Notes: a model not told the origin generated them from the sequence alone. Numbered from the stretch's first letter, positions 33,970 to 51,323 are shown. The stretch: 64,000 nucleotides of DNA from a virus (IMGVR_UViG_3300032083_003484:1-64000); one strand, 5' to 3'. Numbers and translations: made by a program.

Positions 33970-33979
33970 ATAAATAGTT
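33970..33979 (-). promoter_or_regulatory. Candidate late promoter AACTATTTAT
   Basis: Intergenic, upstream of the SD GAGG and the ATG at 33952; heads the structural block. Confidence 0.65.
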
Positions 33980-33984: not shown

Positions 33985-34689
33985 TTAGATTTCTCCGTTG
34001 TCCCACTCGGCTCTTAGATTTCGATATTTTTTTCTTACTTTTGTTAGAGAAGAAGTTATTTGTTTTGTGCTAAAGCCGGTAATCTCCCGCAGATAAACAT
34101 ATACAGCTTTTTTGTTAAATATATCAATCTGTTCTACTGACTCAAATAAAACTTCGACTGCTTCTAAGATTTTTCTATCTTGAGCGCTGGATGTTTCTTC
34201 CTTCCACCATACTATTTCTTCGTGGAGCACCTCAATAAACTCTGCTTTTGTGCGATCTTGGATGTAAGTGTTTCGAACGATAAGCTTTTCATCTAATACT
34301 GTATCAGAAACATCCAAGGCAACTTCTTTTTGAAGCTTCTTTTTTCTTTTCTTGGTCTCGGCAATAAACCAGTTCTTTGTGATCACTGAAAAGTAAGTAA
34401 AGGCCTTATAGCCCTTTTCAACATCAAACTTTTCTAAGATTGTAACCAAAAAGACTTTGCAATCTTCTTTTAGAATATCGCAATTTGGAAGTGAGTTAAA
34501 CTTATACGTATAAACAATCTTATCAACCAACTCGTCAAAAGCAGGTTGGATTAGTGTTACGTATAACTCTTCTCTTCTAGCTTTTGATTTTGATTTACAG
34601 TACTCAAGAATTGCGTCTTCGTGTACCTGCGTAAAATACATGTTTTTTTTCTTTGGATACTTGCTCTTCCTTCTCTTCTTCGTTGTCAT
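33985..34689 (-). CDS. Phage sigma factor, late-transcription (gp55-like)
   Basis: YFTQVHEDAILEY...KFDVEKGYKAFTYFSVITKNWFI region-2-like; C-terminal HTH YLREITGFSTKQIT; SD GAGGAG. Confidence 0.7.
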   Translation of the reverse strand: MTTKKRRKSKYPKKKNMYFTQVHEDAILEYCKSKSKARREELYVTLIQPAFDELVDKIVYTYKFNSLPNCDILKEDCKVFLVTILEKFDVEKGYKAFTYFSVITKNWFIAETKKRKKKLQKEVALDVSDTVLDEKLIVRNTYIQDRTKAEFIEVLHEEIVWWKEETSSAQDRKILEAVEVLFESVEQIDIFNKKAVYVYLREITGFSTKQITSSLTKVRKKYRNLRAEWDNGEI

Positions 34690-34993
34690 CTATTTGCTCC
34701 TCTAGGGCACCTGTAAGCTCTTCTTCCTCTAACCTGCTAAACAGGGTCGTAAAGTCTCCAACTCTCTCTGAGACGGCCTTTGAGTGCTCTAACAAGGCAC
34801 GTAAGGTTTCATCTCCATAAAAGGATTCAAGCTGGTATACTTGTTCGACGTGGCGATGATAAATGTTGAGGTCTGTAATCACTTCCTCAACTTCTAATGA
34901 AAGGTCTGAAAGGTCGGTTACAAGGCGGCGGCCATACCAAGTTAGAATTACATTAAGTAATACCGAAACTGTTATAATACCATAAATCATCAA
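34604..34993 (-). CDS. Hypothetical protein with an N-terminal membrane anchor and coiled coil
   Basis: Hydrophobic N-terminus IYGIITVSVLLNVILTW; 3' end overlaps the sigma gene by 86 nt. Confidence 0.55.
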   Translation of the reverse strand: MMIYGIITVSVLLNVILTWYGRRLVTDLSDLSLEVEEVITDLNIYHRHVEQVYQLESFYGDETLRALLEHSKAVSERVGDFTTLFSRLEEEELTGALEEQIDDNEEEKEEQVSKEKKHVFYAGTRRRNS

Positions 34994-35256
34994 TCCAACA
35001 TCCTATTTGCTAAATTATCTTTTTCGTCTTGAAGAATCTTTCTGTTTTCTTCAATATAATCTTTTGTTAGTTCGCCGGTCTTTTTTGAAGTTTCTTCGGC
35101 GGTTCTTCGGATACTAACAGTAGATAATTGTTTTGTTATTTCGCCTTTATCGGCGCAATCATACACTTCTGAACAAGTGGTTGGGTCTTCATCTGCCCCA
35201 ACCATTGCCTTTAAAGTTGACCCACATTTTTTACATTCGTAAGCGTAAATGGGCAT
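34990..35256 (-). CDS. FmdB-family zinc-ribbon protein
   Basis: MPIYAYECKKCG signature. Confidence 0.8.
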   Translation of the reverse strand: MPIYAYECKKCGSTLKAMVGADEDPTTCSEVYDCADKGEITKQLSTVSIRRTAEETSKKTGELTKDYIEENRKILQDEKDNLANRMLD

Positions 35257-35672
35257 TATTCTTCTTTATTATAGTAATCAGAAGATGAACGGATCTTCAT
35301 TCCAAGTCCATCAACTATTTCTGCTCCAATCTCTTTACAAGTTGTAGCTTCTGGAATCTCATCTATAAAGCGATCTCCGCCTTTTGCGAAGATGTCGGGG
35401 TTTACGGCTTGTAAAGATCTACATACCGTAGGATCCTCATCGATAGAAAGGAATACCTCGTCGACACACTTGAGAGAGGAGACGATCTTAAGTCTATCTC
35501 CCTCGGTCATAAACGGGGTGCCCTTCTTGAGTACTGCCTGATTATCATTATTAACAATAACAATCAACTTATCTCCAAGTTTGGCGGCCATCTCTAAATA
35601 CTCAATGTGACCAACGTGAATCGGATCAAAATAACCGCTGGCCACGACTGTTCTACTCTCTTTCATAATCAT
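35256..35672 (-). CDS. HIGH-family cytidylyl/adenylyltransferase (TagD/RfaE-II/RibL-like)
   Basis: SGYFDPIHVGH, IVIVNND, KGGDR, RSSS. Confidence 0.85.
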   Translation of the reverse strand: MIMKESRTVVASGYFDPIHVGHIEYLEMAAKLGDKLIVIVNNDNQAVLKKGTPFMTEGDRLKIVSSLKCVDEVFLSIDEDPTVCRSLQAVNPDIFAKGGDRFIDEIPEATTCKEIGAEIVDGLGMKIRSSSDYYNKEE

Positions 35673-35988
35673 CCTCTAGTCTCACAACATCATCGAGGTG
35701 AGGTGTCGACACTTCCATTAAAACAACGTCTGCGCCCTGCATTGCCCCAAAGCGATGAACACGGCCCGGTTCGTTGTGCCAGGTGTTGCCTTGCTGGATG
35801 GCGACGGCTTCACTTGTATCAGTCCACACAATGAGAGTTCCCTCTAAGACGTATACAGTCTCTTCTTTGAGGTCGTGGTATTGGAGCGATAGGCGGTGAC
35901 CTCCATTGATGTGTAGAATCTTCCCAACATAGTTATCAGTCTCCGCCCAAATCACTTCGTGGCCCCAAGGTTTATCAACCTTCCGCAT
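35653..35988 (-). CDS. Cupin protein (type II mannose-6-phosphate isomerase-like)
   Basis: KPWG, RLSLQYH...ETVYVLEG, PGRVHR, EVSTP...DVVRLEDDY. Confidence 0.8.
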   Translation of the reverse strand: MRKVDKPWGHEVIWAETDNYVGKILHINGGHRLSLQYHDLKEETVYVLEGTLIVWTDTSEAVAIQQGNTWHNEPGRVHRFGAMQGADVVLMEVSTPHLDDVVRLEDDYERE

Positions 35989-36169
35989 TGACGGCCTCTT
36001 CTAGCTCTGAAAGGTCTCCGGATACGACAGGTGGATTGGTTACCACAAGCCCATCATCGGACATCTCAAAAACCATATCGTTAAGAAGCGGCATGATATC
36101 TGCTTGCTCCCAAAGACATTTTTGTAGAACCATTAACAGGGCTCCGGCTGCTTGATTTGATAGTTTCAT
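35975..36169 (-). CDS. Small hypothetical protein
   Basis: 64-aa ORF with SD AAGGAG. Confidence 0.6.
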   Translation of the reverse strand: MKLSNQAAGALLMVLQKCLWEQADIMPLLNDMVFEMSDDGLVVTNPPVVSGDLSELEEAVNAEG

Positions 36170-36184
36170 TATTTTTCTCCTTTA

Positions 36185-37150
36185 TTATAATTCCTTTTCC
36201 CAGCGATCGATCATATCATCTAATAGCGTTTCAAATGTGTACTCTGGCTTCCAGCCCAGCACGTTTTTTACTTTTGAAGGATCCCCCTTAAGGTATTTTA
36301 GCTCTTCAGGACGCATGTAAATCGGGTTCTGAACAATATGATCTTCGTAATTTAATCCAAGTTTTGAAAATACAACTTCACACAAATCTCTTACAGAGTG
36401 TGTTTCGCCGGTCGCAACAATAAACTCATCAGGAGTATCATGGTTAAGGATCATGTGCATAGCTCTCACATAATCTTTTGAGTGCCCCCAGTCTCTATAA
36501 GAATCCATGTTTCCTAGCTCTAGTTTATCTTGTAACCCTTTCTTAATTGCAACAGCGCCCTTAACAACTTTGTTGGTTACAAAATTTGAACCCCTTCTTG
36601 GGGATTCGTGATTGAAAAGAACTCCGTTGCAAGCGTGAAGTCCATATGCGTGCCTATAATGCCTAACAAGATTATAGCCCATTACCTTTGCACACCCATA
36701 TGGACTAACCGGGTTCATTGGTGTTGTGAGTCTTTGTGTCCCGTCTTCATCAACAGAGTTGCCAAACATCTCTGAAGAAGATGCCTGATAGAATTTTGCT
36801 TCTGGGCATGTTGTTCTATATACTTCCAACATGTTCAAGACGCCTAGAGCGTTTGTTTGTATTGTAAATGATGGCATATCAAAACTGATTCTAACATGAC
36901 TCATTGCGCCAAGGTTATATATTTCATCCGGCTGGACTTCATTAACTATTCTTACCAAAGAAGGGTAGTCTAACAAGTCACCATAGTACGTATTGATGTT
37001 TTTTGTTATATGATTTATTCTGGAATCTTGGTTTTCGGCTACCGAATGCCTTCTTATCATCCCATAGACCTCATAATCATTATCCAATAAATATTCCGCC
37101 AGGTAGCTGCCATCCTGGCCTCCTACGCCGGTTATTAATGCCTTTTTCAT
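36185..37150 (-). CDS. gmd: GDP-mannose 4,6-dehydratase
   Basis: ALITGVGGQDGSYLAE, YNLGAMSHV, YQASSSEMFG, SPYGCAK, LFNHESPRRG, RDWGH. Confidence 0.95.
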   Translation of the reverse strand: MKKALITGVGGQDGSYLAEYLLDNDYEVYGMIRRHSVAENQDSRINHITKNINTYYGDLLDYPSLVRIVNEVQPDEIYNLGAMSHVRISFDMPSFTIQTNALGVLNMLEVYRTTCPEAKFYQASSSEMFGNSVDEDGTQRLTTPMNPVSPYGCAKVMGYNLVRHYRHAYGLHACNGVLFNHESPRRGSNFVTNKVVKGAVAIKKGLQDKLELGNMDSYRDWGHSKDYVRAMHMILNHDTPDEFIVATGETHSVRDLCEVVFSKLGLNYEDHIVQNPIYMRPEELKYLKGDPSKVKNVLGWKPEYTFETLLDDMIDRWEKEL

Positions 37151-37576
37151 TTAAACATTCTCCTTTGTTTTTATGTATGTTTTATCTTTAATTTGGCCAA
37201 AATATGGCCCATTTTTAAATTCGTATAAAATAGTTCCCTCTTCTAAGACTTTAAAACCATGACCTCCAGAAAACACGATTGCGCAATCGCCCTTTTCTAG
37301 GATCTCTTCATGAACCAAGGTATTATCTAGATCCCAAAACCTTGCTTCAATCGAGCCTGAAAGAATGACCCATGCTTCATTGGTTCCAAAGGTTTCTCGC
37401 CTAATATTATTGTGCTTATGAGGCTCAAAAAGATCATTTTTTGATAAAACCTTCGAAGAAACTTGTAAAAGAGCATCATCAGGAGACAGATCGTTTCTAT
37501 CCGCAACTATATCATCTTTTTTATTAATAATTAATAACAGTTTTTCATTAACTTTTGAATAAATAAACCTAGGCAT
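37151..37576 (-). CDS. WbuC-like cupin protein
   Basis: PHKH...EAWVILSG...GGHGF...YEFKNGPY. Confidence 0.7.
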   Translation of the reverse strand: MPRFIYSKVNEKLLLIINKKDDIVADRNDLSPDDALLQVSSKVLSKNDLFEPHKHNNIRRETFGTNEAWVILSGSIEARFWDLDNTLVHEEILEKGDCAIVFSGGHGFKVLEEGTILYEFKNGPYFGQIKDKTYIKTKENV

Positions 37577-38498
37577 TTACTTTCTCCCAAGCTATAATCG
37601 AATACCCATTTATATACATGCTCCCAATAAAGCTTTCTTTTTCAAAAATAATATTAATTTTTTTCTCTTTTTCTAGCTTGTGCATATAGTTTTTAAAGTT
37701 TTTAAGATAATTTCTTTTTTCAAAATATTTTTTACTTAAAAAATCATATAAGTTTGTATCATCTAAGTATTCACTAATTGGTTCTATGTGAAAACATATT
37801 TTAGGATTATTTTCTAGTAAAAAATTAATAAAATCTTCATATTTATCGCCAATTTGCTCTAAAGCTGCAAAGGTATATACCCCTGAGTCTTTTTCTAGAG
37901 AAAGACCATAATTCGGATTAAAAAAATCAAACTTATTACACTTAAAATCAGTGTTGAAGACTTTGTTAATATTTTCAATCGATTGCTGTGAACTTGTGGC
38001 CCAATCAAGCCCAAAAACATTTGCTTCTGGATTGACTTCGTTAACTCTTAAAAGGTTATGTCCAGTCCCGCAGCCAAATTCATATATATTTGCACAGTTC
38101 TTAATAAATTTTTCGAATATCCAATATTGTAATAAGCTAACTAGATTATATTCCATATCTTTATTGCATGGTTTAATTATTTTTTTATTCCATCTAATAT
38201 ATGGATATTTTCCGAAGTATTTTGGGATTAAAAAATTATGTTTTCTGTGTTTTAGAAACCCTTCAGAATTTTCACTCCAGCCTTTTTCCCAATCTCCTAT
38301 TCGATGCTGTCCGGCACGAGTTACTTCCCCTGTATTTTTGTACAGATATTTTAATATTTCTAATATGACATCATTATTTTCTTCTTTATCTAATTCCATA
38401 TAAGATAAATCAAAATCTTTAATTTTCTCTTTTAGAAAAACAGACAGTTCTTCACCAAGAGAATTTTCAAGATCTTTTTCACAAATTTTATTAATCAT
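37569..38498 (-). CDS. Class I SAM-dependent methyltransferase
   Basis: IYEFGCGTGHNL motif I, GLDW, FDFF. Confidence 0.8.
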   Translation of the reverse strand: MINKICEKDLENSLGEELSVFLKEKIKDFDLSYMELDKEENNDVILEILKYLYKNTGEVTRAGQHRIGDWEKGWSENSEGFLKHRKHNFLIPKYFGKYPYIRWNKKIIKPCNKDMEYNLVSLLQYWIFEKFIKNCANIYEFGCGTGHNLLRVNEVNPEANVFGLDWATSSQQSIENINKVFNTDFKCNKFDFFNPNYGLSLEKDSGVYTFAALEQIGDKYEDFINFLLENNPKICFHIEPISEYLDDTNLYDFLSKKYFEKRNYLKNFKNYMHKLEKEKKINIIFEKESFIGSMYINGYSIIAWEKVNA

Positions 38499-39552
38499 CG
38501 GTTCCTCCTAAGTTAAACCATTTAATTGTCCTTTTAATCCCTTCATCTAAAGATATTATTTCTTTTTCATACTCAGGAAATTCATTTCGAAACCTGTCCA
38601 TGGCCAAACTAACAATTTTTGGCGCCTCTTTTGTGGCTTCTGAAGGAAGCTTATTTTTCTTTATGGCTTCTATATTAAAAAAGCTAGCTACTTTATTGGC
38701 TAATTCATAAATTGTTATTTCCTCAACATCTCCACCTACATTATATACTAATTCTTTTCCATCTGTCAATATATATATTAAAATATAAACACAATTAGTA
38801 ATATAAAGGTAGTTTCTTCTTGAGGCGCCTTCATCTAGTAGATTAATATTTCCATTTTGCGCTTTAAAAAGAAAATCCTGCAGCACCCTTTCATCAGAGA
38901 ATAACGCTCCGGGACCATATGTTAAAGCGACTCTAGCTATTTTTGTTTCAACGTTATTGTTTTCTGCATATTGTTTGCAAAGTATCTCGCCTAGGCGTTT
39001 TGATACGATATAACACGATCGATTGTTCTGTAAGTCGAAAACACCATTATAGCTCTCCGGAGTGGGGACAAAGTCTGTAGGAGGAGTGCCATAGACCTCA
39101 CTAGTACTTAAAAATAAAAATTTTCCACCTTTTTTATCCATGTGCTCTAATATTGATTCAACACCCACTACATTTATCAAGCATGTTGCTATACTATTTT
39201 TTAAAAATTTGGCTGGTTGTCCATAACCAGAACAAAAAAAACAAAAATCAATTTTTTCTGGTATTTTAGAGTGTTCAATTCTTGTTGTACAATCCCATGA
39301 AAAATATTTTGCCGTATTATCTTCTACTATATGTTTAATTCTTTTCAGATTATCTTTTTTACTTTTAGACGTCAAAAAAAGATTAATATTTAAAGAAAAA
39401 CATTTATTAATATAAACAAAAAAATCAGCTAAAAAACCACCAATTAATCCATTTGCCCCAGTGATTAATATATTCGAATTTTTAAATTTTTCAATATTAA
39501 TTTTTTTACTTAAAAAGCTACATTCCTCATATATAACATCATAATTATACAT
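38491..39552 (-). CDS. NAD-dependent sugar epimerase/dehydratase (UDP-glucuronate decarboxylase-like SDR)
   Basis: ILITGANGLIG, FLSTSEVYG, YIVSK (YxxxK), TYGPG. Confidence 0.85.
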   Translation of the reverse strand: MYNYDVIYEECSFLSKKINIEKFKNSNILITGANGLIGGFLADFFVYINKCFSLNINLFLTSKSKKDNLKRIKHIVEDNTAKYFSWDCTTRIEHSKIPEKIDFCFFCSGYGQPAKFLKNSIATCLINVVGVESILEHMDKKGGKFLFLSTSEVYGTPPTDFVPTPESYNGVFDLQNNRSCYIVSKRLGEILCKQYAENNNVETKIARVALTYGPGALFSDERVLQDFLFKAQNGNINLLDEGASRRNYLYITNCVYILIYILTDGKELVYNVGGDVEEITIYELANKVASFFNIEAIKKNKLPSEATKEAPKIVSLAMDRFRNEFPEYEKEIISLDEGIKRTIKWFNLGGTDD

Positions 39553-40417
39553 ACCTTAATTTCTCCTTTGTTAACCCTAAAATTTCTCTGTGTTCGTCAG
39601 CAGTTCCATAGTCTGTACAAAACTTTCTTGGTATACCTGTTTTTTTTAAATTTATTAGCATGTTGTTCCTGGAAGCAATATCGAATATTTTATCTCCCAG
39701 GGCGCCTATTGAAGAATTTTCTTCAACTGATATACAATTATTTTGTTTTTTTAATAAATTAACTATTTTTAGTTCGGTTTCTAATGAAAGCGGTTCTATT
39801 GTTGGTAAATATATAATTATGTTTTGCTTTTCCTTTACTATTTCTAGTGTATGCCCACACGTAAAAATAAGAGGCTTTGTTATATCTCCTTCTATTATAT
39901 GACAGTCATATGGATTAATATCAAAATCTTCTTCATGCATGCTTTTGAATAGTTTAAAGTATTTTGTCTTACCGTTAGACCATGTTTTATTAAAAAGATT
40001 TTTGAATTCTTTTTTATTTCCCGGACAAAATATATCGATATTTGGAAGTGGTCTTAAAATTGATATATCTGAATAACAATGGTGTGTGCATCCCAAGTGA
40101 GCGTAGTCAAACGAGCCACCAACTGTGACTATCGTCACATCCAGCTCTTGATAACATAAATCAATCTTAATTTGCTCATACGCCCTTTCAACACAGAATG
40201 GAGCTATCGTATGTACAACTGGCTTAAAGCCATTGAGAGCCAGGCCGGCGGCGATCCCGATCATGGACTGTTCACAGATCCCAATGTTATAAAATCTATC
40301 TGGGAACCTGCTTTCGAATTCTTTTAATAGAAAATGACTAATATCGCCAATCAAAACTACTAGTTTTTCATCTTCTTCAGCTTTTCTTATTAATATATCT
40401 GCAAATGTTTTACGCAT
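39545..40417 (-). CDS. Transketolase-like, pyrimidine-binding/C-terminal subunit
   Basis: NIGICEQSMIGIAAGLA, RAYEQIKID, GCTHH, VEENS..G.LG. Confidence 0.9.
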   Translation of the reverse strand: MRKTFADILIRKAEEDEKLVVLIGDISHFLLKEFESRFPDRFYNIGICEQSMIGIAAGLALNGFKPVVHTIAPFCVERAYEQIKIDLCYQELDVTIVTVGGSFDYAHLGCTHHCYSDISILRPLPNIDIFCPGNKKEFKNLFNKTWSNGKTKYFKLFKSMHEEDFDINPYDCHIIEGDITKPLIFTCGHTLEIVKEKQNIIIYLPTIEPLSLETELKIVNLLKKQNNCISVEENSSIGALGDKIFDIASRNNMLINLKKTGIPRKFCTDYGTADEHREILGLTKEKLRYV

Positions 40418-41174
40418 CTAACTCCTCAATGAATTTTTCATATTGTTCTTTGTTTGGCGGGCCATGGTGCCAGGAGTGCATGTTGGTTTCCATCTCCTTT
40501 ACCCCTTTTCCCTTTACAGTCTTGCACACCACACAAATAGGTAGGTCTTGCTCTTCCTTGGCGGCGCTTATCGCTTTATTGATATCGGCTATGTTGTGAC
40601 CGTCTAAAACAACTACTACTTTCCACCCAAAAGCTTCGAATTTTTTTTCGATTCTTTTAGTCGGTAAAGATCTGATTTGAGAATTATTTTCATCAATTAT
40701 GCATATTAAGTTGTTTAATTTTAAATTTGCGGCGACCATTGCGGATTCCCAAGTTGTGCCTTCGTTACACTCCCCATCACCAATTAAACAAAAGGTTCTT
40801 TCATCCCTTTGTGATATTTTATTTGCGATCGCAATCCCAACACATATTGGCAGACCATGACCAAGAGAACCGGTTGATGCGTGAATTTTTTTGTGCTTTC
40901 CCCTATGCGGGTGACCACCTAGTATACTATCGAAAGAACCGAATGAAAAAAACTCCTCTTCACTAATTATCCCCATCTCTAAAAACACAGCATAAAGAGC
41001 CAAGCAGCCGTGTCCTTTGCTTAAGATAAATTTTTCTTCATCTTTTATATGATCTTTATAAAGGCAATATATGATCTCTAAAATAGAAAAAGCACTTGGA
41101 ATGTGACCTAGTTGAGTTTCATATGAAACTTTTAAAATTTGTTTTTTTAATTTTTTTATTATCTTATGATCCAT
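40410..41174 (-). CDS. Transketolase-like, ThDP-binding N-terminal subunit
   Basis: GHIPS, ILSKGHG, STGSLGHGL, GDGECNEG..WE, VDGH-like LDGHN, TVKGKG. Confidence 0.9.
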   Translation of the reverse strand: MDHKIIKKLKKQILKVSYETQLGHIPSAFSILEIIYCLYKDHIKDEEKFILSKGHGCLALYAVFLEMGIISEEEFFSFGSFDSILGGHPHRGKHKKIHASTGSLGHGLPICVGIAIANKISQRDERTFCLIGDGECNEGTTWESAMVAANLKLNNLICIIDENNSQIRSLPTKRIEKKFEAFGWKVVVVLDGHNIADINKAISAAKEEQDLPICVVCKTVKGKGVKEMETNMHSWHHGPPNKEQYEKFIEELDA

Positions 41175-42186
41175 ATATCCTGTTTAAGTATGTTATTGCA
41201 CTGTGTGGATTAAAATATGCAGCTGCAGCTGCAACGTTTGAATCTGTACATATTAGACGGTCGCATCTTGACATCAAGACACAATCAATTAAACACTCCT
41301 CTCCGTGTTCCGGGCCAGTTGCAGACGTCAAACATATGGGATCGCTGGAGTTATACTTGCTCATCCTTACGGCGGGACGTGCAATTGTTCTCTTGCGGCC
41401 AAATGCTTTAAATATTTCCGCAATCGCCTCGTTGTTGTCAGATGCAACAAATATTTGACTATCTTTTTCTGTTAATTTTTCTTCGATCATATCTAAGTAT
41501 GCATGCAACGGTAAGGATTTGTGGGGGAATTCCATTTTTTTGTCTGTCCCCCTTACGTGCACAGCTAGAACGTCTTCTTTAAAGAATTTATTATAAAATT
41601 TATTTATTTTGTTTGTTATTTCTTTTTTTATTTTTATATTATTTAATATTATTCTGTTAGCACTTTCCCTGTGTTCTCTCTCTAGTGGCGTTCCTAGTAA
41701 GTCCCATAGAAGGAGCGGTTCATACAAATGAATATTTTTAATTAAAAATTTATTTTGCATGTTATAATCTAGCTCTCCTGCCATGAATATGTCAGATACA
41801 TCATGATTAGCGGCGAGCGCATCTTTAACACTATAACTATTTAATGGCTCAAAATAATATTCCCATGGGTTTAAAGAGTTATTCCAACCATCTTTTGACC
41901 AGTAAAGACACTGACAGTGTTTCATCCCAGGAGTGTTGTTGTAGGATGCGGGCGCTGAATCTGTTAGAAAATTGTTTTTGTCTAAAACGCTTGGGTCTTT
42001 AGTGTTCCTATACTCTATGGTACCTGAGCGGCCGTGATTAGAGTCTCTTCGACCCGGCCCCCAACGGACAACAGGAATATAGTTATTATCTTCTGCCCAC
42101 TTAATATTATCAATTGTATGTAAAAATATAGAAAAAAGACCATATGGTCTTGAATCAATAATCAAGAATTTTTTATTCATTTTCAT
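41164..42186 (-). CDS. NodZ/GT23-like (alpha-1,6) fucosyltransferase-family glycosyltransferase
   Basis: GLFS, LAVHVRGTDK, IFVASD, DCVLMSRCD...SNV. Confidence 0.75.
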   Translation of the reverse strand: MKMNKKFLIIDSRPYGLFSIFLHTIDNIKWAEDNNYIPVVRWGPGRRDSNHGRSGTIEYRNTKDPSVLDKNNFLTDSAPASYNNTPGMKHCQCLYWSKDGWNNSLNPWEYYFEPLNSYSVKDALAANHDVSDIFMAGELDYNMQNKFLIKNIHLYEPLLLWDLLGTPLEREHRESANRIILNNIKIKKEITNKINKFYNKFFKEDVLAVHVRGTDKKMEFPHKSLPLHAYLDMIEEKLTEKDSQIFVASDNNEAIAEIFKAFGRKRTIARPAVRMSKYNSSDPICLTSATGPEHGEECLIDCVLMSRCDRLICTDSNVAAAAAYFNPHSAITYLNRIYGS

Positions 42187-43819
42187 TAATGTTAAAGTGT
42201 TTCTTGTACGTATTGTAATTTTTTAAACCAAAAACGTTTTTATATTTATTAAATATCTTTGATTCTTCTTTTAATTTTTCATGAAAATTTTCTTTTGCTG
42301 TAGATAAACCATTTACGTTGTAGTAGTACAAGCCAAGTACCTGTTGTATTTTCTTAAACTTCGATCCGCTTTGTGTGCAGCGCAGCCACATTTCCCAATC
42401 TCCCGCAAAGTTTAATTTTGTATCAAATAACCCATTTTTTTCACTCATTGTTTTTCTCCACATCGGGAGCGGTCCCGGAAGACACTTAATCATGTTTTCT
42501 TTCGAATATTCTAACACCGAGTGCTCATAGAGTTTGTTGAACGAGCTGTTATTTAAATATGTTTCATTTTTTATATTTGTTTGATAAGAATCAGCATAAA
42601 CTAAATCAATTGTGTCGTCAACACTTAAATTTTTTGCCATTATCTCTAAAGAGTTATAAGCTCTGGTGTCGTCGACGTTCCACAAGGTAAGATAATCACC
42701 TGTCGATTTTTTAATCCCCAAGTTCATTGTTTCGTGCACATTTAAAGTTTTATTTAGTTTTTTATAAAATATATTATCATGCTTTTTAATGTATTTTTCT
42801 ATTATTTCAAATTCTTTATCCGGCGAATTAGCATCAAATATTAATAACTCACATTTATCAAATATGGTCTGTTTGACCACTTCTGACATAAAATGCTCTA
42901 TGTACTCTCCCCCTTTGTATAGGGAAGTTATTATTGAAATCTTAGGAATATATATCGATTTTATAAATTGAACTTTTTTATCTTGAATAACGTTTATAAA
43001 TTTTGAAATTGTTTCATTTTTCTTATTTTCAATAAAATTTATTAAATCTAATCCTTTCAGATCACCAAACCAGGGTTCACTAGTGGCTCCTACTAATTTA
43101 TTGGTGACAATTGTGCACCCCAGTATACGTGCCTCTATTGCAACCCGGCTAAAACTTTCAAGCCACTCGGGGAAAAAATATAACTTTTCGGCGGTGGCTA
43201 GCTCTTTTATAAAAGTCTCATATTTGGACGGCTGTATAAATTCAAATTCAATATTATTTTTCTTACAATATTGAACTGTTCTATCCATTCCTTTATTTTT
43301 GTTTTTTGTATACAATATTACATTTTTTTTTGTTTTTTTAATATTAATAGATTTTTTTAATAGTTCTATATTATCATTTGACCATAAATTGCACCCTAAA
43401 TTTACAACATGGTTTATTAAAAGATTTTTTTGTAAGACTTCTGCATGGATCTTACTTTGACAAAAAACTGCTTTTGCATTTTCAAAAAAATCTTTGTTTA
43501 TAATAAATCTCGAAGGCGCTAGCATGTTTAAAAACTTAGAAGGATCATTTGTTGAAACATACTTATGATCGTGCTCTAAGATAATATATTTTGTATTTTT
43601 AAGTAAATTTAAATTATTTTTACTTAAATTCATAAAATTTGAAATTATATAAAATTTATCATCTCTAATGTGAGCCGGCGTCAATAAATGACAATTAATT
43701 TTTTCAAGCTTGCATCCTTCTGATACTAGGCATTTAATGAGTTCATCATTAAATGCCTCTGCGCCCCCCGAGATCCCTTGTTCGGCAAAGAAATCAGATA
43801 CAAAAACAACATCATGCAT
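42173..43819 (-). CDS. Two-domain glycosyltransferase (GT-B/GT4-like + GT2)
   Basis: GGAE...ESFSRVAIEARILGC; ISIITSLY...WNVDD...GDWEMWLR. Confidence 0.85.
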   Translation of the reverse strand: MHDVVFVSDFFAEQGISGGAEAFNDELIKCLVSEGCKLEKINCHLLTPAHIRDDKFYIISNFMNLSKNNLNLLKNTKYIILEHDHKYVSTNDPSKFLNMLAPSRFIINKDFFENAKAVFCQSKIHAEVLQKNLLINHVVNLGCNLWSNDNIELLKKSINIKKTKKNVILYTKNKNKGMDRTVQYCKKNNIEFEFIQPSKYETFIKELATAEKLYFFPEWLESFSRVAIEARILGCTIVTNKLVGATSEPWFGDLKGLDLINFIENKKNETISKFINVIQDKKVQFIKSIYIPKISIITSLYKGGEYIEHFMSEVVKQTIFDKCELLIFDANSPDKEFEIIEKYIKKHDNIFYKKLNKTLNVHETMNLGIKKSTGDYLTLWNVDDTRAYNSLEIMAKNLSVDDTIDLVYADSYQTNIKNETYLNNSSFNKLYEHSVLEYSKENMIKCLPGPLPMWRKTMSEKNGLFDTKLNFAGDWEMWLRCTQSGSKFKKIQQVLGLYYYNVNGLSTAKENFHEKLKEESKIFNKYKNVFGLKNYNTYKKHFNINENE

Positions 43820-45101
43820 ATTCTTTTATTTCTTGTATGTTGTCAGACCATGTCTCCCAGTTAATTAATTCTGTCTTATCAACAACATTATCGATTATTT
43901 TCTCAAATACTTCTTCTTCGTTTGGCCATTCTTTCTCAAGCCATTCTGCTAACTGGGTTGCTTTCTTTTGCATTGCGCCGTGATTCTCCATCATCGAGCG
44001 CATCTTCATCTTAAATGAGCCTTCCTTTGGAAAACACCACATAGAATCAGGAATGATAACTTTATCCCATACAACTTCTTTCTGGACGTGGCGAAGTTCA
44101 TAATCTACCTTAAGTGGAATGAACTTGTTTTTTCCCTTTACAGGCATCGTCAAGAAGTCGGTGTGCCCTGACCAAGCCGGTGCGATGATAGGAAGGCCTG
44201 CTTGTGCTGCCTCGAATAGCGGAAGCCCATAACCTTCACCATGAGTTGTTGTGATAAAGGCGTGAATGTCCTTGTGTCGATAAAGGAGCGCCATCTCCTC
44301 TTCTGTCATATAGCCATGAAGAAGATATACCTTACATTTCTTTTCTTTGTAATCTTCGTGATCTAGAAGAACCTTGATTCTCTCAATACAATGAACCCGA
44401 TCGATCTCGCAGTTCTTTGCTAGGTTGGTCTTTAGAACTAAGCCAACATTTTCACGATCGAAGTTTTCTTCGATAAACCATTTGACTAGGTTCTCTAGAT
44501 TCTTTCGTGGTCCCCATTGGGCAACTGAAAGAAAGTTAAAGTCTGTTTCAAAAGAGATTTGGTTTTCAATTGACTCTGGGCTGTCTTTAAATTCCCAATC
44601 TTTTCTTGGATAAGGAATAACTTCAATGGGTGTTTCGTTTTTGTAGCCCTTGACGATTTCTCCAGTTTGTTGGTTTTGTGCGTCATAAGAGGTTTCGTCA
44701 AAAGCATAACGAGCAAACTGAGAAGGAACAATGATTTTATCCATCATATTTGCCTTCTCAATCCATTCTCCCGCAATCTTTGTGGTTTCAATACCTGCGG
44801 TGACGCCAATGTTGATCGGGGCCATACGCTCCCATTCAAGAGGTATTGTGACCTGTATTGAGACGTCTGGCTGAGGCATTTGCTTTTGTTGCATTAGCAT
44901 AGCTGTCTTTTGAACGAGCGAGTCAAGCCATGCTCGCTCCTCATCGTCTTCAAAGATCCAGTTTGTCGCACCCCAACTGGTTGAAAGAAGGTAAAGATCT
45001 AGATCTTCCTCTCTTGAACGAAGTGAACGAAGAACCAAGCGTGTGTGTTCTCCATAGCCTGATTGTGATAGCGCTGGGCCTCTAACTAATACCTTTTTCA
45101 T
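43812..45101 (-). CDS. GT4-family glycosyltransferase
   Basis: SGYG, RKN, HGEGYGLPLFEAAQAGLPII...SGH.DF. Confidence 0.9.
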   Translation of the reverse strand: MKKVLVRGPALSQSGYGEHTRLVLRSLRSREEDLDLYLLSTSWGATNWIFEDDEERAWLDSLVQKTAMLMQQKQMPQPDVSIQVTIPLEWERMAPINIGVTAGIETTKIAGEWIEKANMMDKIIVPSQFARYAFDETSYDAQNQQTGEIVKGYKNETPIEVIPYPRKDWEFKDSPESIENQISFETDFNFLSVAQWGPRKNLENLVKWFIEENFDRENVGLVLKTNLAKNCEIDRVHCIERIKVLLDHEDYKEKKCKVYLLHGYMTEEEMALLYRHKDIHAFITTTHGEGYGLPLFEAAQAGLPIIAPAWSGHTDFLTMPVKGKNKFIPLKVDYELRHVQKEVVWDKVIIPDSMWCFPKEGSFKMKMRSMMENHGAMQKKATQLAEWLEKEWPNEEEVFEKIIDNVVDKTELINWETWSDNIQEIKEYA

Positions 45102-46360
45102 ACTACCTCCTCAAATGTCCAAGTTGAATGATTTTTTCTGCTTTCCCAAGATCCATAACGATTATGAATGTCTTCTAGGAGTGTTGGCCATTTATCACAA
45201 AAGTCTTTAAAGTTATAGTTCTTTTGCACGTGCTCTCGACCAGCTTCGCCAAGTGCGTTTCGCTCTTCTTCGGGCATTTCCATAATCTTCGTGAGAGCCT
45301 CTATAAAGTCTTCCTTGTTGAGACGGTCCTCATAGATGTAAGGAATGTCTTGAGAGCCTATGATGGCCTTTGAGGACGGTTCTAGGCCTATTCCAAACCA
45401 GTTCTCACCATCAGTTACTTGTTCTTGGAGCCCACCGGTCATATTTACAATGATTGGGGTTCCACAAGAAAGAGACTCAAGGGTTGCTAGACCAAAACCT
45501 TCAGCATCTGAAATGTTGAGGGTGCAATCAACCATATTGTAAATGTTCGCAAGAATCTGCGGTGGATACTTTTGCTTTGAAAAGAATACTTGGCCATCTT
45601 CGTGCATATCAAGTTTCTTTGCAATTGCTTCTAGGTCTTGACCGTTTGGATCTTTTGGTTCTGTATGCATAATAAGAGTTGCCTTGTCCTTTCCAACTCT
45701 TTCCAAAAACTCTTTAAACCAAAATAGCAGGGTTCCTGACTGCTTTCGTCGTGCGTTTCGGTTGTTCCAAAAGAATACAAACTTTTCGTGGGACTCTCCT
45801 AGTTGTTCTTTCCTAAGATCTGATGTAGCTTCTGTTGGCATTGGCTTGAAGATGTCGCCATCAACTGCGTGTGGAACATAGTGAGATTCAACATCCGGCG
45901 CAACTTCTCGAACAATAGCATCTGTAACCTTTGAGATTGAACAAATAACATCATTTGAGTTATAAAACTTTTCATTGTAATAGGGAGCTGGGAAGTTGTC
46001 CCATACGTGATAATAAACCATCGGCATTTGAGAACGGATCTCGTCTTCCATTTCCCAAAGCCACCCAAAGAAACGTGGATCTGTCATAAACCACAAAAGG
46101 TCCGGTCGATGATTTCTCATAATCGACCGGACCACATCAGGCGTTCCAAACCCGTCAATCGGGTAAATGACCCAATCATCGCCCCATTCCTCTGTCTTGA
46201 TGGGGTCGTATTTTGGATGTTTTATAGCACCACCAAGCGAAATAACTTGGTACTTTCCTGTTTTCAGAAGGGATTCTATTACATACTTTGTTTGAGTGCC
46301 AACACCAGACGGGGAAAGAGGCATGTCTGATATTGTTAGAATCTTAATCTTGTCTGTCAT
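45098..46360 (-). CDS. GT4-family glycosyltransferase
   Basis: SGVG, VPHAVD, NRNARRK, EGFGLATLESLSCGTPII; start moved to the ATG at 46360. Confidence 0.9.
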   Translation of the reverse strand: MTDKIKILTISDMPLSPSGVGTQTKYVIESLLKTGKYQVISLGGAIKHPKYDPIKTEEWGDDWVIYPIDGFGTPDVVRSIMRNHRPDLLWFMTDPRFFGWLWEMEDEIRSQMPMVYYHVWDNFPAPYYNEKFYNSNDVICSISKVTDAIVREVAPDVESHYVPHAVDGDIFKPMPTEATSDLRKEQLGESHEKFVFFWNNRNARRKQSGTLLFWFKEFLERVGKDKATLIMHTEPKDPNGQDLEAIAKKLDMHEDGQVFFSKQKYPPQILANIYNMVDCTLNISDAEGFGLATLESLSCGTPIIVNMTGGLQEQVTDGENWFGIGLEPSSKAIIGSQDIPYIYEDRLNKEDFIEALTKIMEMPEEERNALGEAGREHVQKNYNFKDFCDKWPTLLEDIHNRYGSWESRKNHSTWTFEEVV

Positions 46361-46361
46361 T

Positions 46362-47165
46362 TTACCTCGGGCAATGTTTTGTATGTTTGAATTCACAATA
46401 AGTGCAATTCATTCTATTCTTAAAGTATAACTGTTTGTGAATATTATAAACTGCTTTTTTTGTAAAGTCAAGAGCATTTTCAACTTTTTTTTGCCCTGAA
46501 GTGATTTTAAATATTTCTACCCTATTTTTCTTTGCTGTTCTTTTAAGAAGCGCAAAGTGACATTCAACGTCTTTTAGTGGAATGCCGTATTTCTTAGCAT
46601 AAAAATACTTGTAAAGAACTAACTGGTAGTTCGTCATCTTGCTACTTTTCTTTTCTGCTTTCCATCCCCAAGAACAAGTTTTGTAATCTAGAATGTGAAT
46701 CTTGCCATCTGAAGTCTTGATAATAAGATCGATAAAACCTTTGAAAGAAAAGTTATAATCAATTCCTAGATCTTCTTTACAGTCTTCATAAAGAGAGTAC
46801 TCTACAGCAACTAACTCAAACTTGCCGAATTCGATGCGAAGAGCGGGTAAAATAAGCTCAACAAGGTCTTCACCCTGTGCTTTCATCTGTTCTACGAGCA
46901 TTTCATCGTATTCTACACCATCTTTTTGGAGTTGGTTGATTTGTTTTGTAAAATCTTTTTGGAAATAAGAAATAGGGTCTTCTATATTCTCCAAAAGCAA
47001 CTGTTCCGCTGTGTTGTGAACAGCGGAACCAAAAGCGGTATGGGCAGAGCCCTTGAAACCAGCAATGTCGTCGACGTATACTAACTTGTGATACCAAGGG
47101 CATTTATGCCAATTGGAAAGTTCGGAAAAAGAAATATGTGGTTTATGTAGCTTCGGCTCGGTCAT
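46362..47165 (-). CDS. Cas4/AddB-like PD-(D/E)XK exonuclease with Fe-S cysteines
   Basis: CP, G..VH, GFIDLI, ILDYKT, QLVLY, CTYCEF....C. Confidence 0.85.
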   Translation of the reverse strand: MTEPKLHKPHISFSELSNWHKCPWYHKLVYVDDIAGFKGSAHTAFGSAVHNTAEQLLLENIEDPISYFQKDFTKQINQLQKDGVEYDEMLVEQMKAQGEDLVELILPALRIEFGKFELVAVEYSLYEDCKEDLGIDYNFSFKGFIDLIIKTSDGKIHILDYKTCSWGWKAEKKSSKMTNYQLVLYKYFYAKKYGIPLKDVECHFALLKRTAKKNRVEIFKITSGQKKVENALDFTKKAVYNIHKQLYFKNRMNCTYCEFKHTKHCPR

Positions 47166-47793
47166 TTAGCTCCTTTATCTTGTTAAACGCCTCTGGTGAG
47201 ATCTTAGCAGATGCGGAGGCGCTTGTCAAGTAAAAGTGCTCAAAAGCGTTGGCCCAGTATTCCCTGAGAGACGTCGCCCCATACGGAGAGGCGAAGAGGC
47301 CTGGAGTTAGGATGTGTAAGATGTCGTAGCCAACAGTTTGATAAAGAAACTCATCCCATTCTGGGTCATACTCAAACGGAACAGTTATAAGGAACTTTTC
47401 TGGAATTGCTATTTGAGCTTGCTTTCCCATTAGGCCGATTAGCTTTAAGTATTTTTCTTTATACTCTTGTTGGATCTTGCCGTCGCCATAGATAAAGTCG
47501 GTGAAGCGCTCCTCAAGAGAGTGCGCAACCTCGTGCACGATGTCGTCTAGAAAGTCCTGTTCGGAAGACTGTTCAGGCAAGACATAGATAGCGCCGTCAG
47601 CATAGGCAGCATTTAGCTCTCTTTCTCTAAGATCCTCAAACTCACCAACATAAATAACATCGATGCCTTGCATTAGAAAATAACCCGGTAAGGCTTTTTC
47701 TAATTTTTCCAAGGCTTGTTTAAAATCAAACCTAGTCTTTCCTTGTATAAAAACCTCAATTTGTCCGGCGTATAAAGTAAAAAAATTATTCAT
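47143..47793 (-). CDS. Zincin metallopeptidase (lethal-factor/MtfA-like)
   Basis: IVHEVAH and downstream YGATSLREYWANAF. Confidence 0.7.
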   Translation of the reverse strand: MNNFFTLYAGQIEVFIQGKTRFDFKQALEKLEKALPGYFLMQGIDVIYVGEFEDLRERELNAAYADGAIYVLPEQSSEQDFLDDIVHEVAHSLEERFTDFIYGDGKIQQEYKEKYLKLIGLMGKQAQIAIPEKFLITVPFEYDPEWDEFLYQTVGYDILHILTPGLFASPYGATSLREYWANAFEHFYLTSASASAKISPEAFNKIKELNDRAEAT

Positions 47794-48055
47794 CGTCTTC
47801 AGCTTGCGGACCTAGATCGTCCATTGCTTGCTCGTAGCCACGAATAAAGTTTTCCTCAGCAAGAGCAAAAACAAGCTCTGGGAAGTGTGAAGCCAGTACA
47901 TCAATAACCATCTCAACCGTAACATTGCCGGTTTCCGGCTTAAGCTCTTTTCCAACATAATCAACAACAAAAGTCTTAAGTTCGTTGTCGACCTGTACAA
48001 CCTCATCAAGATCAGGATTACGCATTGCTTCTTCCATGGTTTTTATCTTTTCCAT
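47786..48055 (-). CDS. Hypothetical protein
   Basis: 89-aa ORF with SD GAGG; AEENFIRGYEQA. Confidence 0.6.
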   Translation of the reverse strand: MEKIKTMEEAMRNPDLDEVVQVDNELKTFVVDYVGKELKPETGNVTVEMVIDVLASHFPELVFALAEENFIRGYEQAMDDLGPQAEDDE

Positions 48056-48065
48056 TTTTTACCTC

Positions 48066-49376: not shown

Positions 49377-49395
49377 GTGGTTTATCTCCTTTCTT

Positions 49396-49403
49396 TAAAT
49401 AGT
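49396..49403 (-). promoter_or_regulatory. Candidate late promoter ACTATTTA
   Basis: Intergenic, just upstream of the SD AAGGAG of phoH. Confidence 0.5.
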
Positions 49404-49405
49404 GT

Positions 49406-49600
49406 TTAGATCGATTCCATGGCCTTTCTATAACATTTTGGGAGAACCGAGAAACTAGTAAAAACAACCTTTCTTTTTGTTGTTCCAAAGTTAGTTTTCG
49501 TTGTGAGAATAAAGTTTAAGCATCTTTCTGAGGAATTCGCCTTGTCAAACTCAATATTGATATTTCTAGCAAAGCTAGGGTCTAATTTTTCATCATACAT
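49406..49600 (-). CDS. Small hypothetical protein
   Basis: Start reassigned to the ATG at 49600 (MYDEK) because the longer ORF runs into tRNA-Asn. Confidence 0.4.
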   Translation of the reverse strand: MYDEKLDPSFARNINIEFDKANSSERCLNFILTTKTNFGTTKRKVVFTSFSVLPKCYRKAMESI

Positions 49601-49630
49601 AATTTTTTTCCTTTTGTGTTTCGCTACCAG

Positions 49631-49705
49631 CTCTGACACTTGGACTCGAACCAAGGACAAGCGGATTAACAGTCCGCCGCTCTAAACCAACTGAGCTATG
49701 CCAGA
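49631..49705 (-). tRNA. tRNA-Asn(GUU), CCA not encoded
   Basis: Cloverleaf: TCTGGCA/TGTCAGA acceptor, GCTC/GAGC D-stem, GCGGA-CTGTTAA-TCCGC, CTTGG-TTCGAGT-CCAAG, discriminator G. Confidence 0.95.
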
Positions 49706-50415
49706 ATATTTAATATATTTATTGTCTCTTCCCATCCTTCTGTCTGAACGGAAACTCCTAATCTATTATCAACAATCTTTTTAGAAAGAGCATAATCATT
49801 TCCACCAGGGCGAGTTCTGTCTCCAACAAAAGCCAACCTTGCATTCGGGTGAAGCTCTAAGACTTCTTCAGCAACCTGGGACTTGTCTTGACCTGGATTG
49901 TTTAGGTCTAATGAGATCTCTCCACCGGCAACAGCAGATACTCCTGGGAATGTTTGTTCTATCTTCTTTACCAAGCCTAATCTTTCACCGGACATTTTAT
50001 CCCAAGTATGGTATTCTTTTCGTTCCTGTAGTGTCGCATTTCGGCCAACAATAGAAAAGTTCCACATTCCAATTCTTTTTTCTATGTGGTTTCCAGTCTT
50101 AAAAGGATAGTCAGAAGATCTAAGCTGGAATTTAAGAAACCTTTCAAAGCCAAGTGGTGGTCTAAAGTCTCTTTGATAAACTTTTTTATCGTTCTTGTAA
50201 AAGGCATTTCCCATACAAGCAAAAATACCCCCGGACAAGTTGAGAGTGTCCGGGGGTAACTGCTCTTCTATTTTTTCTAGATCTGAACCTGAGCATAAAT
50301 AAAATGTATGCTCTTTTGCCCAGTCCTCAAAGAAAGTTAGGAACTCTTTTGTTGCGGGCTGTCTTGCCGGGGTTAAAGTTCCATCAACATCAAATATATA
50401 TACTTTTTCAGTCAT
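49696..50415 (-). CDS. HAD-IIB phosphomannomutase (eukaryote-type PMM family)
   Basis: FDVDGTLT, SGSD, HIEKR.GM.NFS.VGR, GGEISLD, DK, GDRT..GGND. Confidence 0.88.
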   Translation of the reverse strand: MTEKVYIFDVDGTLTPARQPATKEFLTFFEDWAKEHTFYLCSGSDLEKIEEQLPPDTLNLSGGIFACMGNAFYKNDKKVYQRDFRPPLGFERFLKFQLRSSDYPFKTGNHIEKRIGMWNFSIVGRNATLQERKEYHTWDKMSGERLGLVKKIEQTFPGVSAVAGGEISLDLNNPGQDKSQVAEEVLELHPNARLAFVGDRTRPGGNDYALSKKIVDNRLGVSVQTEGWEETINILNILA

Positions 50416-51109: not shown

Positions 51110-51125
51110 TTTTCTCCTTATTTAG

Positions 51126-51170
51126 TAGACCCACCAGGACTTGAACCTGGAACCAATCGTTTATGAGACG
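51126..51170 (-). pseudogene. 3'-half tRNA(CAU) relic
   Basis: CGT-CTCATAA-ACGAT, CCAGG-TTCAAGT-CCTGG, TGGGTCT-A present; D-arm and 5' acceptor strand absent. Confidence 0.8.
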
Positions 51171-51186
51171 TATGATTTAATATTAA

Positions 51187-51260
51187 TGGGCGCAGAGGGA
51201 CTTGAACCCCCATTGGATCGTTTATGAGACGACGGCATTAACCAATTATGCTATACGCCC
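51187..51260 (-). tRNA. tRNA with CAU anticodon, most likely Ile2 (lysidine substrate)
   Basis: GGGCGTA/TGCGCCC acceptor, GCAT/ATGC D-stem, GTCGT-CTCATAA-ACGAT, GGGGG-TTCAAGT-CCCTC; directly downstream of tilS; lacks initiator features. Confidence 0.9.
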
Positions 51261-51323
51261 TTATACGGTTTTTACAGACTGATCAGGAGGGACGGTGACA
51301 GTGTCTGAAGGGAACCGTAAACC

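Follow-up and report, generated by a model that had tools for sequence, protein, structure and literature searches.

The stretch of DNA analysed here, IMGVR_UViG_3300032083_003484:1-64000 (64,000 nucleotides, hereafter the window), comprises the first 64 kb of a viral contig in IMG/VR, 76.7 kb long and estimated to be 42% complete. At 35256-46396 it carries an island in which every gene lies on the minus strand and overlaps or abuts its neighbours, and our analysis confirmed this island to be a block of soluble sugar-making and sugar-attaching enzymes in an uncultured marine T4-like phage. Two glycosyltransferases (GTs) of family GT4 form a conserved anchor, next to which a 7.7-kb cassette (36188-43900) is exchanged in sibling phages for unrelated sugar pathways of 12-15 kb (blastn). 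The reading that we put forward, that of a soluble cytoplasmic glycan-building island whose conserved GT4 anchor and swapped cassette would decorate virion proteins in a serotype-like manner, stands at about even chances in our estimate.

Anchor and exchangeable cassette

Contigs of close relatives (the G series) were retrieved through the baseplate protein; among them, G001 (169 kb) is 93% complete and G006 is 100% complete. The window shares flanks with sibling phages at 87-98% DNA identity, comprising the nuclease and the two GT4 genes (GT4a and GT4b) on one side and the small gene o64, a nucleotidyltransferase (NTase) and the sigma gene on the other. In G001 and G002 the flanks are 96-98% identical and ~15 kb stands in for 36188-43900, and in G003, with flanks at 87-91%, ~12 kb stands in for it. 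Compared with G001, homology ends at 36187 and restarts at 43901, within the last 30 codons of GT4b. An exception to the lost homology is the Gmd gene (36181-37155), which matches G003 DNA at 80%, the G003 cassette carrying a Gmd 86% identical to that of the window. The GC content of the cassette is 0.33, versus 0.40-0.42 in the flanks of the window. The genes of the island and those beside it are as follows, in the order of the minus strand, with the upstream PMM gene put last.

46362..47165, minus strand: PD-(D/E)XK nuclease (PF12705, 80 bits), the lineage-conserved neighbour upstream of the GT4 pair
45098..46360, minus strand: GT4a, conserved anchor glycosyltransferase (Pfam Glycos_transf_1, 54.5 bits)
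43812..45101, minus strand: GT4b, second conserved glycosyltransferase (Pfam Glycos_transf_1, 31.6 bits)
36188..43900, no strand: exchangeable cassette, from Gmd to the GT2 fusion (blastn breakpoints versus G001 and G003; composition)
42173..43819, minus strand: 548-aa two-domain glycosyltransferase, N-domain of ~285 aa plus GT2 (GT2 at residues 295-426, 55 bits)
41164..42186, minus strand: GT23/NodZ-like transferase of FUT8/NodZ fold, 340 aa (fold model; phmmer NodZ 2hhc, E 9e-5)
40410..41174, minus strand: TK-N, N-subunit of a split transketolase (TK) with the thiamine diphosphate (ThDP)/PP domain (PF00456, 133 bits)
39545..40417, minus strand: TK-C, C-subunit of the split transketolase with Pyr and C-terminal domains (PF02779, 88 bits)
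38491..39552, minus strand: extended short-chain dehydrogenase/reductase (SDR) of the UXS/CDP-6-fructose-reductase branch (PDB 8v4g, 93.6 bits; human UXS1, 90.9 bits)
37569..38498, minus strand: S-adenosylmethionine-dependent methyltransferase (MT), 309 aa (weak by sequence; AF2 model, pLDDT 95.7)
37151..37576, minus strand: WbuC-like cupin (TIGR04366, 31 bits versus a cut-off of 42)
36185..37150, minus strand: Gmd (GDP-mannose 4,6-dehydratase) or a very close homologue (PF16363, 384 bits, full length)
35975..36169, minus strand: o64, conserved 64-aa open reading frame (ORF) at the cassette boundary (no family match in Pfam or NCBIfam)
35653..35988, minus strand: cupin of the mannose-6-phosphate isomerase (PMI) type, C-terminal domain only (PF01050, 36.6 bits)
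35256..35672, minus strand: NTase, small HIGH-motif nucleotidyltransferase of HldC/TagD type, a flank gene (PF01467, 71 bits)
33985..34689, minus strand: gp55-like sigma, after the island; gp25- and gp6-like baseplate genes also follow
49696..50415, minus strand: eukaryote-type phosphomannomutase (PMM; HAD-IIB), outside the cassette (PF03332, 95.7 bits)

The likely start of GT4a is the ATG at 46360, preceded by a GAGG ribosome-binding site, and a longer GTG-started ORF extends to 46396. In the siblings, GT4a is 91-99%, GT4b 88-93%, o64 89-95% and PMM 86-95% identical to the window proteins, and the NTase is 97% identical in G001; NTase and PMM persist in siblings that have neither TK nor Gmd. 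What replaces the cassette was read from G001 45000-64999 and G003 1-20000 (loci L175 and L011). The G001 cassette encodes a UDP-GlcNAc 2-epimerase, a GT-D-like protein, a GNAT, a DegT fragment, WbqC and a radical-SAM/SPASM enzyme, together with a sugar C-methyltransferase, three SDRs, a PfkB kinase and a second NTase. That of G003 encodes a CMP-sugar synthetase, an MptE/CST-I-like protein, a C-methyltransferase, an FkbM methyltransferase and a HAD-NTP-transferase fusion. The PMI-like cupin corresponds to a 312-bp insertion (35679-35990, GC 0.50) between NTase and o64, which abut in G001 and G003, where the cupin is absent at that site; it is a second indel, independent of the main cassette.

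The whole cassette recurs gene for gene, at 50-80% amino acid identity, in the distant contigs L015 (187 kb, 100% complete), L016 and L018, in which PhoH and the nuclease are only 45-59% identical to those of the window, o64 is 54-55% identical, and the GC content of the cassette equals that of the flanks. Homologues of the WbuC-like cupin (47-64%) occupy the same position in these three contigs and in G003. The cassette thus recurs in remote phages while the closest siblings have another in its place, which we take as a sign of exchange by recombination in which GT4b and o64 act as the homology arms.

The order PD-(D/E)XK nuclease, GT, GT and variable sugar genes is annotated in Flavobacterium phage vB_FspM_immuto and Microcystis phage Mel-JY01, where GT4a homologues of 31-33% identity follow the nuclease, and the nuclease holds the same position in immuto, Mel-JY01, G001, G003, G006 and G007. 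A GT4a homologue is also present in Rhodothermus phage RM378. This shared order, together with the RM378 homologue, thus marks the GT4 pair as an old core feature of the lineage. A second phage group with the same architecture and another cassette was seen in IMG/VR (L019-L026, L055 and L061); it has nuclease-GT4-GT4 at 26-36% identity, a GT10 fucosyltransferase, TKN-TKC-SDR, a DegT aminotransferase and a Gmd of ~60% identity.

Lineage, distribution and gene assignments

The gp6- and gp25-like baseplate genes and the gp55-like sigma place the window among T4-like myophages. The closest cultured matches of the gp6-like protein, at 28-31% identity, are Mel-JY01 and immuto, and cyanomyophage matches are only partial. 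With megablast, the island had no match among 50,697 phage records. Near-identical cassette DNA occurs in seawater, marine and estuary metagenomes from ~10 studies beyond the possible source samples, two of which carry a freshwater label, and this spread indicates that the phage is common in nature.

Genes were assigned with Pfam and NCBIfam profiles, and weak calls were examined with fold models and Foldseek. A sequence-only reading of the window had described the island as two GT4s, a GT4+GT2 fusion, a NodZ-like fucosyltransferase, a split transketolase pair, an SDR, a methyltransferase, two cupins, Gmd and a nucleotidyltransferase, with PMM 3 kb upstream and all genes co-oriented into the sigma and baseplate block, and its interpretation overall was partly supported. 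The gene list and the co-orientation were confirmed, with two corrections to identities: both GT4 genes, both transketolase subunits, the UXS-like SDR, the methyltransferase (through its class-I fold model), the two cupins (one WbuC-like, one like the PMI C-terminal domain), Gmd and PMM are all there, and the NodZ-like protein has FUT8 and NodZ as its best Foldseek matches at probability 1.0, though its Pfam scores are below cut-off. Of the proposed fusion, the GT2 C-half was found as described, but the N-half has no Pfam match that would make it a GT4. The nucleotidyltransferase is present but belongs to the HldC/TagD type (PF01467) and not to the ManC family. The main comparative finding, the swapping of the cassette among sibling phages, had escaped that reading.

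The split transketolase and its module

The reference for aligning TK-N and TK-C was E. coli TktA as annotated in the K-12 record. TK-N keeps the equivalents of E. coli H26, H66, H100, G114, D155, N185 and H261, and TK-C those of E411, H473 and R358. Among 129-147 family members there is no variation at D133 and N163 of TK-N (E. coli D155 and N185) or at E49 of TK-C (E411), and H26, H66, H100, H261 and H473 are all present here and in at least 144 of the 147 members. The ThDP/metal motif GDG...N and the cofactor-activating Glu of a transketolase are both in place, and His100 marks TK as opposed to DXS chemistry, DXS having Phe at that position (PMC7661550).

The residues that contact the sugar phosphate and the aldose (R358, S385, H461, D469 and R520) are not retained as a set. 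In TK-C, H461 is replaced by Gly (119 of 129 members) and D469 by Leu (91 of 129); at the R520 position TK-C has Lys and other members have Glu, Lys, Arg or Asp, and the equivalent of S385 is uncertain, with a Ser two residues after an Asp. In E. coli transketolase, as is known from its engineering, the 2-hydroxyl of the aldose acceptor is bound by Asp469, whose replacement shifts acceptor specificity. Among solved structures, TK-C is closest to the C-chain of the split TK of Carboxydothermus (6yaj, 101 bits), an active enzyme that retains both His461 and Asp469. We infer an altered acceptor pocket and, with it, a possible transfer of the two-carbon (C2) unit to a non-canonical carbonyl acceptor.

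The two subunits are part of a module. TKN-TKC-SDR-MT are contiguous and in that order in many viral contigs, and the same order is found in Bacteriovoracaceae, Omnitrophota, Sediminibacterium and Saccharibacteria, usually with ~1 kb between SDR and MT. The 146 viral and bacterial TK neighbourhoods are rich in nucleotide-sugar genes: SDRs occur in 114, DegT aminotransferases in 38, the 309-aa methyltransferase family in 37, RmlC epimerases in 29, HldE-like kinase-NTase (PfkB-NTase) fusions in 21 and GT10 fucosyltransferases in 15. A true Gmd (at least 45% identity) lies within 10 kb of TK in ~33 of 80 viral loci.

The SDR has the motifs STSEVYG and YxxxK and keeps the nucleotide-contact residues Arg164, Arg208, Asp212 and Arg233. 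Its solved relatives are nearly tied, at 93.6 bits for C. jejuni HS5.17 (8v4g) and 90.9 bits for human UXS1; HS5.17 reduces open-chain CDP-6-fructose (PMC10918830), and the SDR reads T-S-E, with the Ser-Glu of the UXS type, where HS5.17 has T-M-E (Met139-Glu140). The methyltransferase, fourth member of the module, has an extra N-terminal domain of ~130 aa; its model (pLDDT 95.7) matched class-I methyltransferases in Foldseek at probability 1.0, and E140-x-G-C-G144 and D165 are invariant in its family.

Relatives of TK-N number in the thousands, the closest (70-80% identity) coming from marine metagenomes. An alignment-based scan of IMG/VR found them in 94 contigs at up to 66% identity; this type of scan was needed, since TK-N as a single-protein query against IMG/VR found nothing. 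No TK-N relative above 48% identity was seen among ~186,000 species genomes, and tblastn of TK-N against cultured phages returned only small unannotated or apparently bacterial contigs. Two unverified leads were also noted: a 63%-identical TK-N is named from metagenome-assembled genomes of Flavobacteriaceae and Xanthomarina, which may point to a host or donor, and a member of the 80% TK-N cluster lies on a 173-kb contig.

For miharamycin and amipurimycin, a split-gene TK has been proposed, as yet without proof, to add a hydroxyacetyl group to a keto sugar, and all known split-TK branching candidates are from Streptomycetes (PMC12247030). The sequence-only reading had assigned a C2-adding role to the ThDP enzymes, and this role gains support from the conserved TK-N/TK-C/SDR/MT module and the loss of His461 and Asp469, alongside the split-TK precedent. 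More specifically, the module, which would be a widespread and previously unrecognised one of phages and bacteria, might turn the Gmd product into a methylated GDP-sugar that is C-branched or extended by two carbons, the siblings swapping cassettes behind the GT4 anchor and so giving virion 'serotypes'. We hold this full version only tentatively and judge it rather doubtful; if true, no earlier case of sugar branching by a transketolase would be known beyond the antibiotics of Streptomyces. A literature search on transketolase in O-antigen or capsule loci returned nothing relevant.

Sugar supply and transferases

Gmd scores 384 bits with PF16363 (cut-off 27) and 377.6 with the TIGR01472 equivalog (cut-off 415), scores at which a GDP-heptose 4,6-dehydratase would look similar, and it is 48-52% identical to cyanophage Gmd genes. 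The best model for the NTase is RfaE domain II, heptose-1-phosphate adenylyltransferase (TIGR02199), at 90.4 bits, below the cut-off of 181.5. No match to the ManC-type NTP_transferase PF00483 was obtained among the ORFs scanned at 33985-51935. Because the NTase is of PF01467 and not ManC-type, a GDP-mannose pyrophosphorylase step is not visibly phage-encoded, and the chain of MPI, PMM, NTase and Gmd to GDP-4-keto-6-deoxymannose, on which the sequence-only reading had relied, breaks at the NTase. NTase and PMM also lie outside the cassette and are retained in siblings without Gmd and TK. The broader idea of a phage-borne nucleotide-sugar and glycosyltransferase pathway holds, with Gmd as the probable supplier of a GDP-4-keto-6-deoxyhexose.

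The GT23-like protein falls below the Pfam cut-offs for FUT8_N_cat (24.6 versus 27.6) and NodZ (19.1 versus 28.3). Its fold model (pLDDT 75) returned only FUT8 and NodZ in Foldseek, then POFUT and FUT1, all at probability 1.0, with TMq 0.45-0.59 for FUT8/NodZ, and the stretch HVRGTDK is invariant in the family alignment. GT23 enzymes take GDP-6-deoxyhexoses, and this transferase probably uses a GDP-sugar donor.

In the fusion, the GT2 domain matches those of chondroitin and heparosan synthases in the PDB. The relatives of its N-half in the ESM Atlas are viral proteins of ~280 aa, a minority to majority of which carry Glycos_transf_1, which we treat as a lead only, and the two halves are found as separate genes elsewhere. 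Solved matches of GT4a are BshA, MshA, PimB and, with a weak sequence match, chlorovirus B736L (3oy2), matches that do not indicate an acceptor type. GT4b has no solved relative by sequence.

The acceptor of the glycan

A hydropathy scan of the window, G001 and G003 cassettes (~35 kb in all) found no transmembrane protein, and Pfam found no initiating phosphoglycosyl transferase, flippase or transporter, polymerase or ligase among the cassette ORFs scanned, which were all but a few short ones of G003. As the three cassettes are without membrane, export or initiation proteins, gene content favours a cytoplasmic acceptor. Phages whose hosts are unrelated share the conserved GT4 anchor, and every enzyme of the pathway is soluble; on this basis we judge virion proteins to be the most likely acceptor, which would give serotype-like variation of the particle surface.

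The glycan may instead be meant for the host envelope: infected cells would have their lipopolysaccharide (LPS), capsule or S-layer glycan altered through the lipid carrier, flippase and ligase of the host, for example to block superinfection or the adsorption of progeny to lysing cells. This is how cyanophage clusters have been read in print, including the 24 'LPS genes' of P-SSM2 (PMC1079782) and the 13 cell-wall genes of S-SCSM1, among them Gmd, MPI and NodZ (PMC9602691). The polymorphism of the cassette also resembles that of O-antigen loci, and GT4, GT2 and GT23 are families of O-antigen assembly. We nevertheless regard remodelling of the envelope as somewhat improbable, given that the ~35 kb of the three cassettes holds none of the initiating, export, polymerising, ligating or membrane proteins listed above, and that the GT4 pair is a deep core feature in phages of Flavobacterium, Microcystis and Rhodothermus, which argues for an acceptor on the phage side.

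The position of the GT pair beside a nuclease, among replication-side genes, would also fit glycosylation of the phage DNA against restriction in the style of T-even phages, with the nuclease destroying unmodified DNA; a diversity of sugars would suit a restriction arms race, and viral GTs placing diverse glycans on DNA are reported in work cited in PMC12619734. PF00303 (ThyA/hydroxymethylase) and PF00145 (C5-methylase) were absent from G000, G001, G006 and G007, and TGT/DpdA was not found in G001 and G006, with positive controls in both cases; for TET/JBP (PF12851) there was no match, but its control was blank too. Since near-complete relatives lack the dCMP/dUMP hydroxymethylase family, the C5 DNA methylase and TGT/DpdA, DNA is an unlikely target, and the amino, C-methyl and nonulosonic-type sugar pathways, with at least four GTs, far exceed known DNA glycans. 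We therefore consider DNA hypermodification highly improbable. The sequence-only reading had named virion decoration first, with DNA or host-surface modification as other options; its DNA option has lost ground with the missing entry enzymes, and decoration of the virion is the option that we would favour from gene content.

Transcription and a second variable spot

The sense strand shows no enrichment of the T4 late box TATAAATA. The motif ACTATTTA occurs at 12 sites, versus 3.6 expected, 10 of them on the sense strand, including 49396-49403 (before PhoH), 33971-33978 (after sigma) and 8 other minus-strand sites. The sites lie ~20-50 nt before the starts of structural genes and PhoH, and the motif is a candidate late promoter; it has no site within the island.

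The first gene after the late-type motif at 33971 (31610-33952) encodes a 780-aa protein that is ~71% identical to its G001 counterpart over 191 aa, versus 97-99% for the neighbouring proteins. This second variable spot may encode a receptor-binding protein. Separately, TTGACT-17-TATAAT is found at 46443-46471, inside the 3' end of the nuclease gene, with 83 nt between it and the GT4a ATG. This may be an early promoter of the island, though such matches are at chance level regionally. At 49631-49710, a tRNA gene begins in the last PMM codons, so that the PMM stop codon lies inside the 5' end of the tRNA.

Proposed route and opposing evidence

We propose the following scenario for the island. 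The GT4 pair, encoded right after the nuclease, probably starts the glycan on an acceptor determined by the phage, and the cassette would make the distal sugars and carry their transferases, recombination swapping it among siblings. Gmd would convert GDP-mannose, probably made by the host, into GDP-4-keto-6-deoxymannose. The split TK would then move a two-carbon ketol unit onto a non-canonical carbonyl, most plausibly that of the Gmd keto sugar, after which the UXS-like SDR would reduce the TK product and the methyltransferase would methylate it. Finally, the GT23-like enzyme and the GT2 fusion would attach the products to the chain.

Several points weigh against this scenario. The acceptor, the sugar, and the donor and acceptor substrates of the TK are all inferred. 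Peripheral GT4 and GT2 enzymes can use undecaprenyl-linked intermediates of the host without a membrane protein of the phage, which would be consistent with remodelling of the host surface. With regard to timing, the late-type motif precedes PhoH (49396), the next copy being that at 33971 after sigma, and sigma70-like matches are at chance level (54 versus 54.2 expected). The remaining points concern the chemistry: the SDR is as close to the open-chain CDP-ketose reductase (8v4g) as to UXS, the flank NTase is nearest to heptose-1-phosphate adenylyltransferase, HldE-like kinase-NTase fusions lie near TK in 21 loci, and, with Arg358 kept and a Ser near the Ser385 position, some phosphate binding may survive in TK-C.

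Because of the likeness of the SDR to 8v4g, the NTase family and the HldE-like fusions, a route through sugar phosphates also fits. The TK would then yield a ketose phosphate such as sedoheptulose-7-P and would not act on NDP-keto sugars, a difference in chemistry only and not in the target of the glycan. Either the PMI-like cupin, PMM and the HldC-like NTase would convert the ketose phosphate to an NDP-heptose, or the ketose phosphate would be activated and the SDR would reduce it to an NDP-alditol, in the manner of CDP-6-glucitol synthesis, for which the CDP-6-fructose reductase HS5.17 (PMC10918830), the best solved relative of the SDR, offers a parallel. Viral split TKs, including the pair of a prasinovirus, have moreover been read as pentose-phosphate genes (PMC5454428). 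Against such a route, His461 and Asp469 are lost and Arg520 is unconserved across the family; NTase and PMM are flank genes retained in TK-less siblings, and a separate indel carries the cupin. The TK genes directly adjoin those of the SDR and MT and have a true Gmd nearby in 33 of the 80 viral loci, and the SDR motif is the UXS-type T-S-E rather than the T-M-E of HS5.17. On balance we think it unlikely that the TK works on sugar phosphates, and transfer to the Gmd keto sugar is still the chemistry that we would place within the proposed glycan-building island.

Comparison with known systems

To our knowledge, sugar clusters of marine T4-like phages have been known since 2005, and which target they glycosylate has never been tested. 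The presence of Gmd, MPI and NodZ-type sugar genes in such phages is established: P-SSM2 (PMC1079782) and S-SCSM1 (PMC9602691) are marine and T4-like and have clustered Gmd, single-domain type-II MPI, NodZ-type and other fucosyltransferases, epimerases and GT2/GT4, and their clusters vary between related phages. The phage of the window belongs to a different lineage, its baseplate matching Kyanoviridae only in part and immuto and Mel-JY01 best, and its island differs in the nuclease-GT4-GT4 anchor, the defined breakpoints and the split TK/SDR/MT module. In a tblastn search of cultured phages, none of the genomes matched was a convincing carrier of this module. The present study adds three points: an anchor-plus-cassette architecture whose breakpoints are exact, a TK/SDR/MT module recognised as conserved in sugar loci of phages and bacteria, and the loss of the canonical sugar-contact residues His461 and Asp469 in this TK family.

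As in bacterial O-antigen and capsule loci, conserved flanks enclose a polymorphic, low-GC block of NDP-sugar and GT genes that is replaced by recombination; unlike those loci, the three cassettes yielded no initiating transferase, Wzx/Wzy or ABC transporter, or ligase. A fixed anchor with an exchangeable cassette is what marks surface structures on which diversifying selection acts. Soluble viral GTs act in the cytoplasm on virion proteins in mycobacteriophages (Freeman et al. 2023, as summarised in PMC12619734) and on chlorovirus capsids, independently of the membrane export route of the host, and GT4a weakly matches the chlorovirus GT B736L (3oy2). The present island differs from these in making its own nucleotide sugars and in being swapped as a cassette. 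Because the cultured phages immuto and Mel-JY01 share the anchor layout, glycans on their virions, DNA and host cell surface are directly measurable.

The TK pair resembles two known kinds of enzyme. Like the split TK of Carboxydothermus hydrogenoformans (6yaj/6yak; PMC7661550), it consists of two chains with the same cofactor-binding and catalytic residues, whereas the equivalents of His461 and Asp469 are kept in ChTK-C and are Gly and Leu in the phage family. In gene arrangement it is like the split TKs of the miharamycin and amipurimycin clusters (PMC12247030), a two-gene TK beside an oxidoreductase and sugar-tailoring genes, for which transfer of a C2 unit to a keto sugar has been proposed. 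Those pairs belong to Streptomyces antibiotic clusters and none has been proven in vitro, whereas the pair described here lies in a phage cassette with Gmd and a GT23-like transferase. With its compact size and altered TK, the TK/SDR/MT module offers a practical candidate for a route to branched sugars through transketolase, which is as yet unproven.

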